Assembly (NCBI GenBank): GCA_034660395.1
Contig: JAYEJA010000040.1
Location: 4,434 to 68,433, forward strand
DNA: 64,000 bases
Direction of reading: 5' to 3'
Source: Actinomycetota bacterium
GTDB lineage: Bacteria > Actinomycetota > Humimicrobiia > Humimicrobiales > Humimicrobiaceae
The notes under the pieces are model-generated. The model ran no database searches and was not told where the DNA came from. It was given only the letters and a program-made list of their open reading frames with translations. Position numbers and translations under genes: made by a program. Shown here piece after piece: positions 2,932 through 34,079 of this stretch (the first letter of the stretch is position 1; the number at the start of each line of letters is the position of its first letter).

Positions 2932-3165
2932 TAAATTTGCTATTTGCAACAAGATGTTGGATTCTAAAAAACATCAAGTATTTTAAATGGCTATCATGGT
3001 TGTATATACCCTAAATTTTTTTCTGCATGTCTTTATTTAGTATTGTTTTAGCCCCCCATGAAGTATTCGAAAGTTTAAATAGAAGCTTTTAATAAAAAAG
3101 TAGATACAGGTTAATTCTTTAATCTGCATTATTCTAAAAAGATAAGCAGATAAATACCGGTAAAA

Positions 3166-24465: not shown

Positions 24466-24815
24466 GGGGGCGACCTGGGTTCGACGGGGATAGGTTGAGC
24501 TTAAGTTGCAAGCCGAGTATCAGAACTCGTAAATAACTGAACCATAAATAAACGCTAATAATAAATTAGCATTAGCAGCCTAATTTAAGCTGCTACGTCT
24601 GTGAAGGGTTTCCTGCGCTTTTCAACAGGCGCCGATTAGCAGGATACTCCGGCATGATTTGTCTGCAGTAGTGCCGGGGGAAGTTTTATGCGGACTGGCT
24701 TTTTTAACCGTGTCCATACGGGTGAAAAAGTGAGAATTTAAAATGTGGACTAAGCTTGTAGATATTTAAGTGGCGATGTCTTCGGACGCGGGTTCGATTC
24801 CCGCCGCCTCCACCA
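24466..24815 (+). ncRNA. ssrA: tmRNA (transfer-messenger RNA)
   Basis: 5' GGGGGCGACCTGGGTTCGACGGGG. 3' GGACGCGGGTTCGATTCCCGCCGCCTCCACCA (tRNA-Ala-like T-arm and acceptor with encoded CCA). Internal tag ORF GCT AAT AAT AAA TTA GCA TTA GCA GCC TAA, giving (A)NNKLALAA. Confidence 0.9.
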
Positions 24816-26936: not shown

Positions 26937-27194
26937 ATGATTACGGTAAAAAAGGAAAACGATAATAAATTTCTGGTAACCGTAGAAGAAGGGGGCAGCA
27001 GTACGGAGCATGCCGTTAATCTGGATGATGAATATTACAGGGACCTGACGGGCGGTGAAATTGCGAGGGAGGAACTGATAAGGAAATCTTTTAAATTCCT
27101 ACTTGAAAGAGAACCCAAAGAATCCATACTCCCACAATTTAATTTAGGGATTTATATACTTATAAACACTAAATTAATTTATAATAAGTGTTAA
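26937..27194 (+). pseudogene. Small hypothetical gene whose 3' end is interrupted by the IS1595-family element. The native C-terminus resumes after 29939.
   Basis: The ORF reads through the IS left IR. Rejoining the flanks across the 8-bp TSD restores ...PQFNLNIIKSYFPEYEREIKI*, ending at 29990. Confidence 0.5.
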
Positions 27195-27201
27195 TAAGTA
27201 C

Positions 27202-27230
27202 TTGACAACACTATTATTTAGTGTTATTAT
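27202..27230 (+). promoter_or_regulatory. Sigma-70-type promoter of the transposase (TTGACA-17-TATTAT). A palindrome ACACTAttattTAGTGT fills the spacer. The -10 lies 6 nt from the ATG (leaderless).
   Basis: Read directly. The ACACTA/TAGTGT motif also forms the inner ends of both IRs and occurs at 27188..27193. Confidence 0.6.
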
Positions 27231-27236
27231 ATACTC

Positions 27237-28160
27237 ATGATGAACGATAAAAATAAAACAAAAGAAATGAGTATAATAGATTTTCTAACAAAAAGATTTC
27301 CGGATGAGGAAACAGCAGTAGATTTTTTTGCTAAAAAGCGTTGGGGTAACAAAATTACCTGTCCTTATTGTGGAAGTAGTAAAGTATATCACGTAAAAGG
27401 AAATCAACCATATAAATGTGGAAATTGCAACTTTAAATTTACAGTAAAGACAGGTACAATAATGGAAGGTAGCCACATAAAAGTAAGGACTTGGTTATTA
27501 GCAATGTACATTATGGGAACAACACGGAAAGGTATATCTTCTATTCAGCTTGCAAAACAACTTGGAGTAACCCAAAAGACAGCTTGGTATATGGCACATA
27601 GAATAAGAGAAGCTTGTAATAATTATGAGAAGATGAAAGGTATTATAGAAGTAGATGAGGCATATTTCGGTGGAAAAGAAAAAAACAAACATCATAGCAA
27701 AAAATATAACAAAGGACGCGGGGTTGCTAATAAAACAGCGGTTGCTGGATTAAAAGAGAGAAATGGAAAGTTTATGGCAAGGGTTTTAAAAGATACAAGT
27801 TCTTATACGTTGCAGGGTTTAATCCAAAAGAATGTAGTACCAAATTCAGCAGTATTTACTGATGATTTTCTATCATATATTGGATTGGAAAATAAAGGAT
27901 TTAAACATCAATCGGTAAAACATAGTGCTAATGAATATGTGGATGGCATAGCTCATACAAATGAGATTGAAAGCTTTTGGGCTCTGTTAAAGCGTGGTGT
28001 ATATGGAACATATCATTTTGTTAGTGTAAAACACTTACAACGCTATGTAAATGAATTCTGTTTTAGGGCAAACAATGGCAATACGGCATTATCTTTTGTG
28101 GATGCTATTTGCTTAAAAGCAAATATGAAAAATATAAAATATAAGGAATTGATAGCTTAA
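27237..28160 (+). CDS. IS1595-family (ISXO2-like DDE) transposase
   Basis: N-terminal zinc finger CPYCGSSK..CGNCNF. Family-typical blocks EVDEAYFGGK, VFTDDFLSY, HTNEIESFWALLKR. Confidence 0.9.
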   Translation: MMNDKNKTKEMSIIDFLTKRFPDEETAVDFFAKKRWGNKITCPYCGSSKVYHVKGNQPYKCGNCNFKFTVKTGTIMEGSHIKVRTWLLAMYIMGTTRKGISSIQLAKQLGVTQKTAWYMAHRIREACNNYEKMKGIIEVDEAYFGGKEKNKHHSKKYNKGRGVANKTAVAGLKERNGKFMARVLKDTSSYTLQGLIQKNVVPNSAVFTDDFLSYIGLENKGFKHQSVKHSANEYVDGIAHTNEIESFWALLKRGVYGTYHFVSVKHLQRYVNEFCFRANNGNTALSFVDAICLKANMKNIKYKELIA

Positions 28161-28954
28161 TGGTAAAGAAACAAATAATAAAACCCATAGAAAAAGATTT
28201 TGATGAAATAGTGGAAAGTGTTGGTAAACATAATCCTAAAAACAGGAATAATGTTTTCTCAAATATAAGAAATATTACACAACCAACATTAGAACTTGCG
28301 GATGGGTTAAAACTAAATGAAAAACAGAAAATGGACGGATTACAGCTTTTAAAAATGCTTGATAATAAAAGTATACCGCTTGTATTTTTTGACCCGCAAT
28401 ACCGAACAATTCTTGATAAACAAAATTATGGTAACGAGGGCGAGGGTAGACAAAAAGCGAGAGTTAAATTACCACAAATGAAAGAAAAAACAATTAAGCA
28501 ATTTATAAGAGAAATTGAGAGAATACTTATACCAAGTGGTCATTTAATGCTTTGGGTTGATAAATTTATAATTTGCAGTGGTATACATATTTTGCTTGAA
28601 GGGTCGTCACTTCAGCTTGTAGATATGGTAACTTGGAACAAAAACAAAATGGGTATGGGTTATAGGACAAGACGCTACAGTGAACATCTTATTATACTCC
28701 AGAAATTACCAGTAAGAGCAAAAGGGGTATGGCGTATTCACGATATACCAGATGTATGGACTGAAAAAATAAACAATGGAGATAAAAAGAATTATGTTCA
28801 TCCCAAACCAGTGGGGTTACAAAAACGATTAATAGAAGCTGTTACAAATAAAAATGATGTAATTGTTGACCCTGCTGCTGGTGGTTATTCGATATTGAGG
28901 GCTGCTAATGAAGTTGGGCGTAACTTTTTGGGGTGTGATATTATAGATATTTAA
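28160..28954 (+). CDS. Beta-class N6-adenine/N4-cytosine DNA methyltransferase (pfam N6_N4_Mtase-like), translationally coupled to the transposase
   Basis: Motif IV-like FFDPQY precedes motif I VIVDPAAGGYS. Conserved WNKNKMGMGYRTRRYSEHLIILQK block. The start ATG overlaps the transposase stop (TAATG). Confidence 0.75.
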   Translation: MVKKQIIKPIEKDFDEIVESVGKHNPKNRNNVFSNIRNITQPTLELADGLKLNEKQKMDGLQLLKMLDNKSIPLVFFDPQYRTILDKQNYGNEGEGRQKARVKLPQMKEKTIKQFIREIERILIPSGHLMLWVDKFIICSGIHILLEGSSLQLVDMVTWNKNKMGMGYRTRRYSEHLIILQKLPVRAKGVWRIHDIPDVWTEKINNGDKKNYVHPKPVGLQKRLIEAVTNKNDVIVDPAAGGYSILRAANEVGRNFLGCDIIDI

Positions 28955-29027
28955 AAGCTTGACATACACACTTTAATAATAGTAGAATTAAATTCAGAAA
29001 GTTATAGGGAGACAACCTATGAATCTG

Positions 29028-29061
29028 GGGCAATACTTAATTGGATTGCCCTTTTTCTTTT
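29028..29061 (+). terminator. Rho-independent terminator after the transposase-MTase transcript
   Basis: GGGCAAT-acttaattgg-ATTGCCC stem-loop followed by TTTTTCTTTT. Confidence 0.65.
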
Positions 29062-29150
29062 GGTGCGGATGGTGGGACTCGAACCCACACGAACCTATCG
29101 GCTCAACAGGGAGACAACCTATCGCGTCTACCAATTCCGCCACACCCGCA
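29061..29150 (-). tRNA. tRNA-like sequence (class II, Leu-type D-arm and long variable arm) with an aberrant anticodon loop. Probably a pseudo-tRNA or a captured tRNA fragment.
   Basis: Reverse complement is GCGGGTGTGGCGGAATTGGTAGACGCG-ATAGG-TTGTCTC-CCTGT-TGAGCCGATAGGTTCGT-GTGGGTTCGAGTCCCAC-CATCCGCACCA. Acceptor, D-, T- and variable arms are intact. The anticodon loop TTGTCTC has a pyrimidine at position 37 and an apparent anticodon GTC, which is inconsistent with a class II tRNA. Confidence 0.45.
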
Positions 29151-29216
29151 TAAATAGTAAATTTAATTCTATCATACTAAATTGTTATAATAAATAAATT
29201 ACAGTATAATAAGTAT

Positions 29217-29909
29217 ATGGCACTAATAGAAAAAGCCCAGGGACGTAAAGTAGACCAATCACCAAGTGGGTATACTCGCTTGTTTGGTATTTCCACGCTG
29301 GGAAATTTAATAAGTAAAGTACACGCAGCATGTATATCTGCGGGAACTGAACTTGAAAGATTTATTTGGGAAAGAGTAAACCAGATAAGCGACCTTGATA
29401 AATTTATAACAGAAACATTGCATAAAAAAGAAGACAGTGGAAAAATATGGGTTGCTATCAAAAGACAGATTAAACAATCAAAAACAATTAATTCAAAATA
29501 TGAACCAGATTTTATCGCTTTTGATTTAAAATTAAGAATGTGCTACGTCATTGAAGTAAAAGACGGAGACCAATTTGATACAAAAAAAGCAAGCGGTGAA
29601 CATAACACACTCCATAATTTTACAAATGATATTTCACACGACTTACCTTTTTCAACAAGAATTTTCATGTGTTGTTTTCATGCAAGAAATATAGAGGAAA
29701 TGTATATTGGTTTGAAAGGTAAATTTTCTAAAGATGAATTAATGACAGGGAAGGATTTATGCTTACTTCTTGGTATAGATTATGATGAAATTATTAAAAT
29801 ACGTACAAGTGACCAGCAGAGAAACCTTGATTACTTTATAAATAGTTTGTTATATATAGATACTATCAAAAATATGATTAAGAAAAGATTAGGCATATTT
29901 AAGATTTAG
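29217..29909 (+). CDS. PD-(D/E)xK nuclease-fold protein, a candidate type II restriction endonuclease partner of the MTase. Its stop codon lies inside the IRR.
   Basis: ..KYEPDFIAFDLKLRMCYVIEVKDGD.. has a PD...(E)VK spacing typical of PD-(D/E)xK nucleases. Leaderless promoter TTGTTA-17-TATAAT-6-ATG at 29182..29216. Confidence 0.5.
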   Translation: MALIEKAQGRKVDQSPSGYTRLFGISTLGNLISKVHAACISAGTELERFIWERVNQISDLDKFITETLHKKEDSGKIWVAIKRQIKQSKTINSKYEPDFIAFDLKLRMCYVIEVKDGDQFDTKKASGEHNTLHNFTNDISHDLPFSTRIFMCCFHARNIEEMYIGLKGKFSKDELMTGKDLCLLLGIDYDEIIKIRTSDQQRNLDYFINSLLYIDTIKNMIKKRLGIFKI

Positions 29910-30043
29910 TGTTTATAAGTATATAAATCCCTTAATTTAAATATAATTAAAAGTTATTTTCCCGAATATGAAAGGGAAATAAAAATATAATAAAAAGATA
30001 AAAAGGTATTTATATTTACACCTGTGGGAAAAGGAGGGAATAA

Positions 30044-33295: not shown

Positions 33296-33374
33296 CGGGG
33301 TGTAGCGCAGTTTGGTTTAGCGCACCTGCTTTGGGAGCAGGGGGTCGGAGGTTCAAATCCTCTCACCCCGACCA
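33296..33374 (+). tRNA. tRNA-Pro(TGG)
   Basis: CGGGGTG acceptor, anticodon loop CTTTGGGAG, T-arm GGTTCAAATCC, CCA encoded. Confidence 0.85.
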
Positions 33375-33380
33375 GTACGG

Positions 33381-33456
33381 GCGGGAATAGCTCAATTGGT
33401 AGAGCGTCAGCCTTCCAAGCTGAAGGTCGCGGGTTCGATCCCCGTTTCCCGCTCCA
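33381..33456 (+). tRNA. tRNA-Gly(TCC)
   Basis: GCGGGAATAGCTCAATTGGTAGAGC, anticodon loop CTTCCAA, CCA encoded. Confidence 0.85.
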
Positions 33457-33501
33457 ATTTTTTGAAAAAAAATTATTTGGCATAATGTTTTATGCGATTT
33501 T

Positions 33502-33578
<77 letters not shown>

Positions 33579-33694
33579 GAAATAAAGGCCGGAAGCGGAT
33601 ATGCCGCCTGGCAGGGGTATTGATTGGTTCTGGCAAATTTTTATACCGTATTATAAGTAAGGTATAGGTTGTATAATTTATTTGAAAATTATAT

Positions 33695-33771
33695 GGTGAG
33701 AATAGCTCAGCTGGCAGAGCACAGGATTGTGGATCCTGGGGTCGCGGGTTCGATCCCCGTTTCTCACCCCA
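33695..33771 (+). tRNA. tRNA-His(GTG) with an extra 5' G(-1)
   Basis: G-GTGAGAATAGCTCAGCTGG.., anticodon loop TTGTGGA. Confidence 0.85.
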
Positions 33772-33785
33772 TATTTTTTAGTTTT

Positions 33786-33862
33786 GCGCCTGTAGCTCAG
33801 CTGGATAGAGCGTCGGACTTCGAATCCGTGCGTCGGGGGTTCGAATCCCTCCAGGCGCGCCA
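33786..33862 (+). tRNA. tRNA-Arg(TCG)
   Basis: Same backbone as the Arg(TCT) gene, with anticodon loop CTTCGAA. Confidence 0.8.
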
Positions 33863-33907
33863 TATATAATTTAGAGAAGCCGGTATAGCCGGGTTTAGGA
33901 TGTAAAT

Positions 33908-33983
33908 GGGCCGTTAGCTCAGCTGGTAGAGCACCTGACTCTTAATCAGGGTGTCACAGGTTCGATCCCTGTACGGCTCACCA
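33908..33983 (+). tRNA. tRNA-Lys(CTT)
   Basis: GGGCCGTTAGCTCAGCTGGTAGAGC, anticodon loop CTCTTAA. Confidence 0.85.
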
Positions 33984-33992
33984 TTTTAATTG

Positions 33993-34079
33993 GCGAGAGT
34001 GGCGGAACTGGCAGACGCGCTAGACTTAGGATCTAGTGGGGTAAAACCTGTAGGGGTTCAAGTCCCCTCTCTCGCACCA
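33993..34079 (+). tRNA. tRNA-Leu(TAG), class II
   Basis: GCGAGAGTGGCGGAACTGGCAGACGC, anticodon loop CTTAGGA, long variable arm. Confidence 0.85.

Follow-up and report, generated by a model that had tools for sequence, protein, structure and literature searches.

The IS1595 family of insertion sequences (ISs) is characterized by terminal inverted repeats (TIRs) of 25 bp and by 8-bp repeats, and tISCpe8 and MTnSag1 are cargo-bearing insertion sequences (tIS) that carry lincosamide resistance (PMC5704250). Restriction-modification (R-M) genes have also been described as cargo of this kind: Furuta, Abe and Kobayashi reported in 2010 transposon-like R-M units that lie within inverted repeats and are accompanied by 8-bp target duplications, and one from Neisseria combines repeats of 26 bp and duplications of 8 bp with a degenerate transposase motif, COG3677 (PMC2853133). 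The DNA considered here, a 64,000-nucleotide stretch of contig JAYEJA010000040.1 from an Actinomycetota bacterium (assembly GCA_034660395.1; hereafter the window), contains a 2,785-bp insertion sequence of the IS1595 family (27147-29931), inside which lie a transposase gene (tnp), a DNA methyltransferase gene (M), two RNA genes and, at the right end, a gene (R) that we read as encoding a restriction endonuclease (REase). From the sequence we put the probability that R encodes the endonuclease of a type II R-M system, with M as its partner and both as passengers of the element, at about 85%. The REase is a previously uncharacterized member of a known REase family, and its carrier is a cargo-bearing IS of the IS1595 family whose R-M cargo is of a kind already in the literature, although it provides a clearer and more widespread example. 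The pair formed by a small RNA and a tRNA-like RNA between M and R, which is confined to the clade of the window, looks new.

The translation of R contains the sequence K-Y-E96-P97-D98, followed after 14 residues by E113-V114-K115, so that the E..PD-x14-EVK spacing picked out in this 230-residue protein by the original prediction is indeed present as E96-P97-D98-x14-E113-V-K115. Residues E45, E47, P97, D98, E113 and K115 are invariant in 48 relatives at 54-83% identity, and in 34 more distant relatives (26-45% identity) D98 and K115 still never vary, and at least 90% retain E45, E47 and E113. The protein matches the curated PADLOC profile REase_II (PDLC03487) with an E value of 4.2e-50, its residues 1-224 covering positions 1-226 of the 227 in the profile, and an identical protein, from a metagenome-assembled genome labeled Actinomycetota, bears the name 'restriction endonuclease' at NCBI. 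A word-indexed search of a large protein collection returned 289 relatives, and a full profile scan extended the family to 626 clusters at 50% identity, nearly all of them stand-alone proteins of 220-240 residues.

An AlphaFold model of the REase built on the alignment (pLDDT 89.8, pTM 0.81) has an alpha-beta-beta-beta-alpha-beta core, running through helix 26-53, strands 77-81, 99-103 and 108-115, helix 122-140 and strand 146-153. In the model D98 stands just before core strand 2, E113 and K115 lie within strand 3, and E45 and E47 are placed on the first core helix. Its structural neighbors are found among REases, the nearest solved structure being EcoO109I (1WTD/1WTE), and it also resembles Cfr10I, Bse634I, NgoMIV, BsoBI, PspGI and FokI. 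Structure prediction against REase folds had been proposed as a check at the outset, and the fold obtained is that of a nuclease with its catalytic residues in place. The full-length match to a curated profile, the retention of the catalytic residues down to 26% identity and the recurrent order of M and R (described below for about 95 of 168 loci) together carry the reading of R as an REase, and lend support to the candidate put forward originally.

The proposed partner matches Pfam N6_N4_Mtase (PF01555; 1.4e-18) and PADLOC MTase_II (PDLC03271; 5e-78). Its motif IV (FFDPQY, residues 76-81) precedes motif I (DPAAGG, near residue 240), which is the order of the beta class, and its nearest solved relatives are M.MboIIA and DpnA. 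An Asp in motif IV points to adenine methylation, and M, in which this motif reads DPQY, is probably an N6-adenine enzyme. The stop codon of the transposase gene overlaps the start codon of M (TAATG), an arrangement in which M may be translationally coupled to the transposase. The public annotation of an identical methyltransferase places the start 57 codons later, giving 207 aa (P0124); the reading of 264 aa, which begins within the stop codon of the transposase gene, is to be preferred, because relatives of 258-263 aa span the longer N-terminus.

The company that M and R keep elsewhere was examined in 168 related loci, drawn from collections of viral, genome and metagenome sequences (cited below by their L numbers), on which the three element proteins were mapped. 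The methyltransferase family stands directly upstream of the REase in about 95 of these, usually with a gap of 3-26 nt and with or without a transposase, and the hosts include Patescibacteria, Chloroflexota, Spirochaetota, Bacteroidota, Proteobacteria and DPANN archaea, as well as Campylobacter plasmids. Most related loci have no IS1595 transposase nearby. Apart from the closest relatives, the order tnp-M-R is found in more than 20 loci at 55-75% identity, where the genes usually form a tight operon; those of L173 touch or overlap one another. A search of phage records gave no REase relative, and plasmid records gave only the Campylobacter homologs, at 41% identity. The closest relatives, L001 and L003 (REase 81-84% identical), lie on contigs with endolysin, helix-turn-helix (HTH) and other phage-type genes. 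Among the three closest lineages the ratio of nonsynonymous to synonymous substitution (dN/dS) lies at 0.07-0.10 in R, at 0.07-0.08 in M and at 0.06-0.09 in the transposase gene. Of the nine pairwise comparisons, eight give a dS of 1.2-1.6 and one, the transposase of L001 versus L003, a dS of 0.68. Such low ratios in all three genes, combined with high dS, indicate that tnp, M and R have long shared both descent and selection, diverging as a unit.

The vehicle is equally well defined. The transposase matches Pfam DDE_Tnp_IS1595 (PF12762; 4.9e-41) and Zn_ribbon_IS1595 (PF12760; 3e-11) and the NCBIfam model transpos_IS1595 (NF033547; 2.2e-63, 214 bits against a cutoff of 75). The TIRs are 28 nt long and perfect, occur only as these two copies in the window with 0 matches in shuffles, and are kept at 26 of 28 positions in L001 and L003, while the 8-bp duplication differs by site, being TTAATTTA in the window and AAAAGTTA in L003. 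A transposase with a zinc ribbon, TIRs of about 25-30 bp, an 8-bp duplication and occurrence at several sites are the features of an IS1595 tIS, and all are found here. The same element standing at different sites, on a chromosome and on phage contigs, with 8-bp duplications, shows by comparison that the transposase moves the whole unit. It is present in a single copy in the window, inserted in the chromosome between ilvD-like and yggS-like genes, with a GC content of 32% against 40-45% in the flanks. Its coding strand holds no open reading frame (ORF) of at least 60 aa beyond tnp, M and R, the others being antisense and inside genes.

R is an integral part of this element, since its stop codon lies at or within the transposase-binding end wherever the ends of relatives were found: besides the window, L001, L003, L004, L093 and L107 have the TAG on or inside the inner boundary of the right inverted repeat (IRR). 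The original prediction had made the TAG the first three bases of the IRR; the stop is inside the repeat as claimed, at positions 4-6 from the inner edge. The coordinates of the element and its parts are collected in Table 1.

Table 1. Predicted features of the element and its target site, in coordinates of the window
Feature	Coordinates	Strand	Remarks
Target-site duplication, left copy, TTAATTTA	27139..27146	.	8 bp, identical to 29932-29939
Left inverted repeat (IRL), GGGATTTATATACTTATAAACACTAAAT	27147..27174	+	28/28 match to IRR
Transposase promoter TTGACA-17-TATTAT	27202..27230	+	11/12 consensus; TG before -10; ends 6 nt before ATG 27237
IS1595-family DDE transposase, 307 aa, N-terminal zinc ribbon	27237..28160	+	Pfam, NCBIfam
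DNA methyltransferase, 264 aa	28160..28954	+	Pfam, PADLOC
Small-RNA promoter TTGACA-18-TAGAAT	28959..28988	+	11/12 consensus
Predicted small RNA, ~65 nt, 5' end inferred	28995..29060	+	Hairpin AUAGG-GAGACAA-CCUAU, then intrinsic terminator
15-nt box AGGGAGACAACCTAT in small RNA	29006..29020	+	Exact complement of tRNA-like anticodon arm
tRNA-like gene, 89 nt	29061..29149	-	Ends where terminator tail ends; ARAGORN 'Asp GTC'; Rfam tRNA 49.9 bits
Anticodon stem-loop segment, tRNA positions 28-42	29108..29122	-	Pairing with small-RNA box; predicted cognate duplex -29.8 kcal/mol
REase promoter TTGTTA-17-TATAAT	29182..29210	+	10/12 consensus; then AAGTAT and ATG; putative leaderless mRNA
Predicted type II REase, PD-(D/E)xK fold, 230 aa	29217..29909	+	ATG start, TAG stop; proposed catalytic E45/E47, D98, E113, K115
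IRR	29904..29931	-	Holds REase stop codon TAG at 29907-29909
Target-site duplication, right copy, TTAATTTA	29932..29939	.	8 bp

In the clade of the window R would be uncoupled from the ancestral tight tnp-M-R operon, with a promoter of its own that yields an mRNA with little or no leader. The end of M at 28954 is separated from the start of R by 262 bp with the two RNA genes within; the methyltransferase that had been described as adjacent is thus upstream of R, with an interval between them that went unmentioned. The promoter boxes of R are TTGTTA (29182-29187) and TATAAT (29205-29210), and 6 nt separate the -10 box from the ATG, just as originally read; in L001 and L003 a TATAAT stands 8 nt before the REase ATG. 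The transposase promoter has the same layout (TTGACA-17-TATTAT, 6 nt, ATG), no Shine-Dalgarno-like 4-mer was found upstream of the start of either gene, and of all promoter matches on the plus strand of the element, those of the transposase, of the REase and of the site at 28959 rank highest. The geometry that had been said to unite R and the transposase is therefore real as a layout, and leaderless expression of both is plausible, a reasonable inference rather than a firm one because promoter-like matches are common in AT-rich DNA. The stretch just 5' of the REase start (29178-29218) is also a 76% direct repeat of 27153-27189, in the region of the left end and the transposase promoter, and has 10 nt (ATAAGTATAT) in common with the IRR core. 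This likeness could be what remains of an element end, could give the transposase a binding site over the R promoter, and could equally be due to chance in AT-rich DNA.

Controllers of R-M expression include C proteins and antisense RNAs, as in EcoRI, and kissing antisense pairs are known in ColE1 (RNA I/RNA II), R1 (CopA/CopT) and IS10 (RNA-OUT/RNA-IN); the U-turn of the anticodon loop is a structural motif common to fast-pairing antisense loops. No small HTH controller ORF that could be a C-protein gene was found in the element, and the element proteins gave no meaningful Pfam HTH match. What separates M from R is an insert of about 260 bp with two convergent RNA genes, present only in the window, L001/L002 and L003/L004; in the rest of the family M and R abut, and the next-nearest clades show this abutting order with no RNA genes. 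The module occupies 28959-29149 in the window (both strands), 4340-4548 in L001 and 5740-5936 in L003. Two pattern scans of viral contigs, one for the small-RNA promoter and one for the inverted repeat, revealed no further copies, and searches with the methyltransferase and the transposase added only decayed or truncated relatives (L169-L172).

The plus-strand partner would be a small RNA with a promoter and terminator of its own. Its -35 box and a TTTAATAAT.GT stretch are invariant in the window, L001, L003 and L004, and the TTGACA -35 and the same kind of -10 box are present in L170, L171 and L172. The terminator (stem 29028-29034 / 29045-29051, T-run 29052-29060) has undergone compensatory changes between lineages (GCAAT/ATTGC versus GCGAC/GTCGC). 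The body of about 40 nt is the least conserved stretch, with 17-30% identical columns compared with 50-87% in the flanking coding sequence. Inspection by eye for a T-box-like antiterminator found no alternative pairing of the terminator stem and no consistent match to a tRNA 3' end.

The minus-strand partner is shaped like a tRNA. It scores 49.9, 47.1 and 49.6 bits with the Rfam tRNA model in the three lineages, and alignment to the host tRNA-Leu reveals a long variable arm, a D arm of the Leu type, A at position 73 and a CCA encoded in the gene. Changes on both sides of 17 of 25 pairs have left the cloverleaf intact. In the window the anticodon loop reads UUGUCUC, and in the other two lineages UUCGCAC and UUGGCUG, which puts the anticodons GUC, CGC and GGC (Asp, Ala and Ala) on a Leu-type body, and position 37 is U in the window and L003, that is, a pyrimidine in two of the three lineages. 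A cloverleaf with D and T arms is thus present in an RNA whose anticodon loop is unfit for decoding, which calls for U33 and a purine at position 37; the mismatch between anticodon and body and the pyrimidine at position 37 make a decoding tRNA unlikely, and we prefer to speak of a tRNA-like gene rather than of a tRNA-Leu. An extended -10 box (TGATAGAAT, minus strand, about 29167-29175), recognized by eye and not called by the promoter scan, may be its promoter; it would stand back to back with the promoter of R, so that the two may compete.

The two RNAs match each other lineage by lineage. The exact complement between the small RNA and the anticodon loop with its flanking stem extends over 15, 13 and 12 nt in the three lineages, compared with 5-9 nt for non-cognate combinations, and the predicted cognate duplexes have energies of -30, -23 and -22 kcal/mol versus -3.5 to -19 for non-cognate ones. 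For the small RNA of the window, pairing with the arms of the other two lineages is predicted at -8.8 and -11.1 kcal/mol. Shuffled sequences reached the observed complement length in at most 1 of 5000 trials per lineage, and in 0 of 5000 at the 15 nt of the window. Because synonymous sites are near saturation in most comparisons, selection for pairing between the two RNAs is the best explanation of matches so specific to each lineage. No mRNA presents itself as an obvious target, since neither RNA overlaps or complements the mRNA of R, M or the transposase: no conserved complementarity of at least 8 nt was found between either of them and these three messages.

What such a pair might do can be stated tentatively. 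The complementary loops of the tRNA-shaped RNA and the small RNA could form a loop-loop complex serving as a new type of R-M controller, acting on balance or timing, or as an addiction or exclusion module with a private pair in each lineage; on the sequence evidence we hold this to be possible, with odds somewhat below even. Less likely is a toxin-antitoxin variant, in which the tRNA-like RNA would be charged with Leu and poison the cell by mistranslation, with the small RNA as antitoxin. Searches of the literature turned up no R-M system or IS described as having a tRNA-like/antisense pair.

The chief rival to a functional pair, which we regard as unlikely though deserving of serious consideration, is that nothing functional links the tRNA-like gene to the repeated 15-mer, the gene being captured host cargo or a scar of integration into a tRNA gene and the second copy of the anticodon arm a leftover duplication. 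Mobile elements often carry or target tRNA genes, and direct repeats of partial tRNAs are a usual footprint of integration. An R-M unit integrated in a tRNA gene was reported in the 2010 survey (PMC2853133). In L171 (1228-1510), moreover, a tRNA-like gene is accompanied by a small RNA with no complement to it of at least 7 nt. Against a scar stands the coordinated change itself, as the loop differs in the three lineages and the second copy changes along with it, whereas an unselected duplicate would have decayed at the flanking dS found in most comparisons. The small RNA has no similarity to the tRNA 3' half outside the matched box, and the second copy sits in a unit on the opposite strand with a conserved promoter and terminator of its own.

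Decayed copies offer a glimpse of what is lost together. L170 (4763-6228), from the same assembly as L001, is a decayed copy in a phage contig with terminase, portal and capsid genes, which retains a 78-aa transposase remnant, an intact methyltransferase and the small RNA but of the tRNA-like gene only the 3' half, and has an HNH endonuclease gene in place of the REase; it looks like a phage retaining a methylase as an orphan. The REase gene of L171 is disrupted at codon 4. The methyltransferases of L171 and L172 (1208-1284) are more than 90% identical and their small-RNA bodies completely different, and 10 nt of the small RNA of L172 are complementary to the variable arm of the tRNA-like gene in L171. 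The loss of R in L170 and L171 together with that of the intact, matched RNA pair fits an RNA function tied to R, in what is a tiny sample. A more distant locus, L097 (REase 63% identical), carries at 2972-3122 a 73-nt tRNA gene at the M-R junction, on the minus strand and scoring 65 bits in Rfam, which is bracketed exactly, on the plus strand, by a promoter matching the consensus at 12/12 positions and by an intrinsic terminator, so that an RNA fully antisense to the tRNA would result. This suggests that 'tRNA plus anti-tRNA' is a recurrent solution at the M-R junction, placed independently in the L097 clade.

Several results weigh against our interpretation, or against parts of it. Searches of Pfam, NCBIfam and PDB sequences with the REase matched no family model and no solved structure. 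Promoter-like matches number 21 overall versus 14.7 +/- 4.1 in shuffles and are thus not rarer than chance, the copy in L001 is without a target duplication, and the regulatory role of the RNA pair has three intact lineages as its base. A recognition site derived from palindrome avoidance was considered and rejected. Host DNA outside 27147-29931 has 39 GATC where 184 are expected from trinucleotide frequencies (z -10.7) and 9 CTAG where 46 are expected, and GATC is absent from the IS copy of the window and CTAG from all three close IS copies. In the flanks of 116 related loci, CTAG stands at 0.56-0.58 in every identity class and GATC at 0.63-0.84, and the signal is not specific. The depletion of GATC and CTAG may reflect this restriction system or another one of the host lineage.

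Of the alternatives to an R-M endonuclease, the stronger is that R encodes a nuclease outside a classical R-M pair (type IV-like, nicking or homing-type), or an inactive remnant, with M as an orphan. The separate promoter of R and its distance from M behind two RNA genes would suit such an enzyme, as would the decayed copies in the phage contig L170 and in L171, which keep M and lose R. We nevertheless consider it improbable: the ORF is full length with all catalytic residues intact, purifying selection on R equals that on M, gaps of 3-26 nt between M and R are the rule in the family, and a methylation-dependent enzyme beside its own methylase would be self-destructive. The weakest alternative, raised in the original prediction, is an accessory nuclease of transposition that makes one-strand cuts at the element ends like TnsA in Tn7, for which one could cite the position of the gene inside the IS, a stop codon embedded in the transposase-binding end and the PD-(D/E)xK fold class shared with TnsA, and which is largely refuted and very improbable because most M-R loci have no transposase nearby, the pair occurring without an IS1595 transposase in Dehalococcoidia, Spirochaetia, archaeal chromosomes and Campylobacter plasmids, and because the curated profile that R matches is that of a type II REase. 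MTnSag1 and tISCpe8, furthermore, are reported with a single DDE transposase (PMC5704250).

Taken as an R-M system on a transposon, the parts of the element could work together as follows. M would methylate a short DNA site, probably at adenine, and R, as a metal-dependent PD-(D/E)xK nuclease, would cut the same site if it is unmethylated, both roles being those expected from their families. The pair would protect the genome that carries it and punish loss of the element, and would thereby also stabilize the transposon, which the DDE transposase would mobilize as a whole, R-M and RNA genes included, making 8-bp target duplications. The tRNA-shaped RNA may offer its anticodon loop as a pre-organized antisense loop to the apical loop of the small RNA encoded 40 bp away, and the two may tune R-M expression as a C protein or an antisense RNA does elsewhere.

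Two further observations concern the chromosomal setting. An 85-codon host ORF (26937-27194) has had its 3' end interrupted by the IS and now runs 48 nt into the left inverted repeat before reaching a stop. A tmRNA gene (tag ANNKLALAA) beside smpB and a cluster of seven tRNA genes lie at 24466-24815 and 33296-34079, an ordinary chromosomal context from which it follows that the IS resides in a bacterial chromosome and not in a phage.

Set beside described systems, the REase shares with type IIP PD-(D/E)xK enzymes such as EcoO109I the core fold, the Asp before strand 2 and the ExK in strand 3, and also the small stand-alone format of about 230 aa and a gene beside that of a methyltransferase. 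Both proteins are full-length matches to PADLOC families (PDLC03487 at 4e-50 and PDLC03271 at 5e-78), and the REase is filed in the former, a library entry without an enzyme name or recognition site; by itself it is an ordinary family member and one more candidate enzyme. The RNA pair resembles the known R-M controllers and kissing pairs in being a small non-coding unit beside M and R, with complementary apical loops whose sequence varies between related elements, as is also the case for the RNAs that determine plasmid incompatibility, and differs from them in that one partner is a complete tRNA-shaped RNA with an encoded CCA and in that there is no C-protein gene. If functional, it would represent a new way to control or stabilize an R-M system, and a natural use of the tRNA scaffold as an antisense RNA.

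As a carrier, the element is like tISCpe8 and MTnSag1 in its DDE transposase with zinc ribbon, its TIRs in the range of about 25-28 bp, its 8-bp duplication and the placement of cargo between tnp and the right end. It departs from them in that the cargo is a complete R-M system accompanied by two RNA genes, the IRR contains the end of the last cargo gene, and the tnp-M-R association is old and widespread, with more than 20 loci from metagenomes, metagenome-assembled genomes and phages at 55-83% identity. With the units described by Furuta and colleagues it has in common R-M genes inside terminal repeats, whether perfect or imperfect, and a short duplication on insertion; in contrast to these, the transposase of the window is intact and under purifying selection and several independent insertions can be compared, for which reasons the element looks like an active autonomous transposon and not a relic. 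A complete R-M system that travels as cargo of an autonomous IS between bacterial chromosomes and phages, a clean case seen repeatedly, with ends intact, target duplications and selection on all three genes, lends direct comparative support to the view of R-M systems as selfish mobile units.

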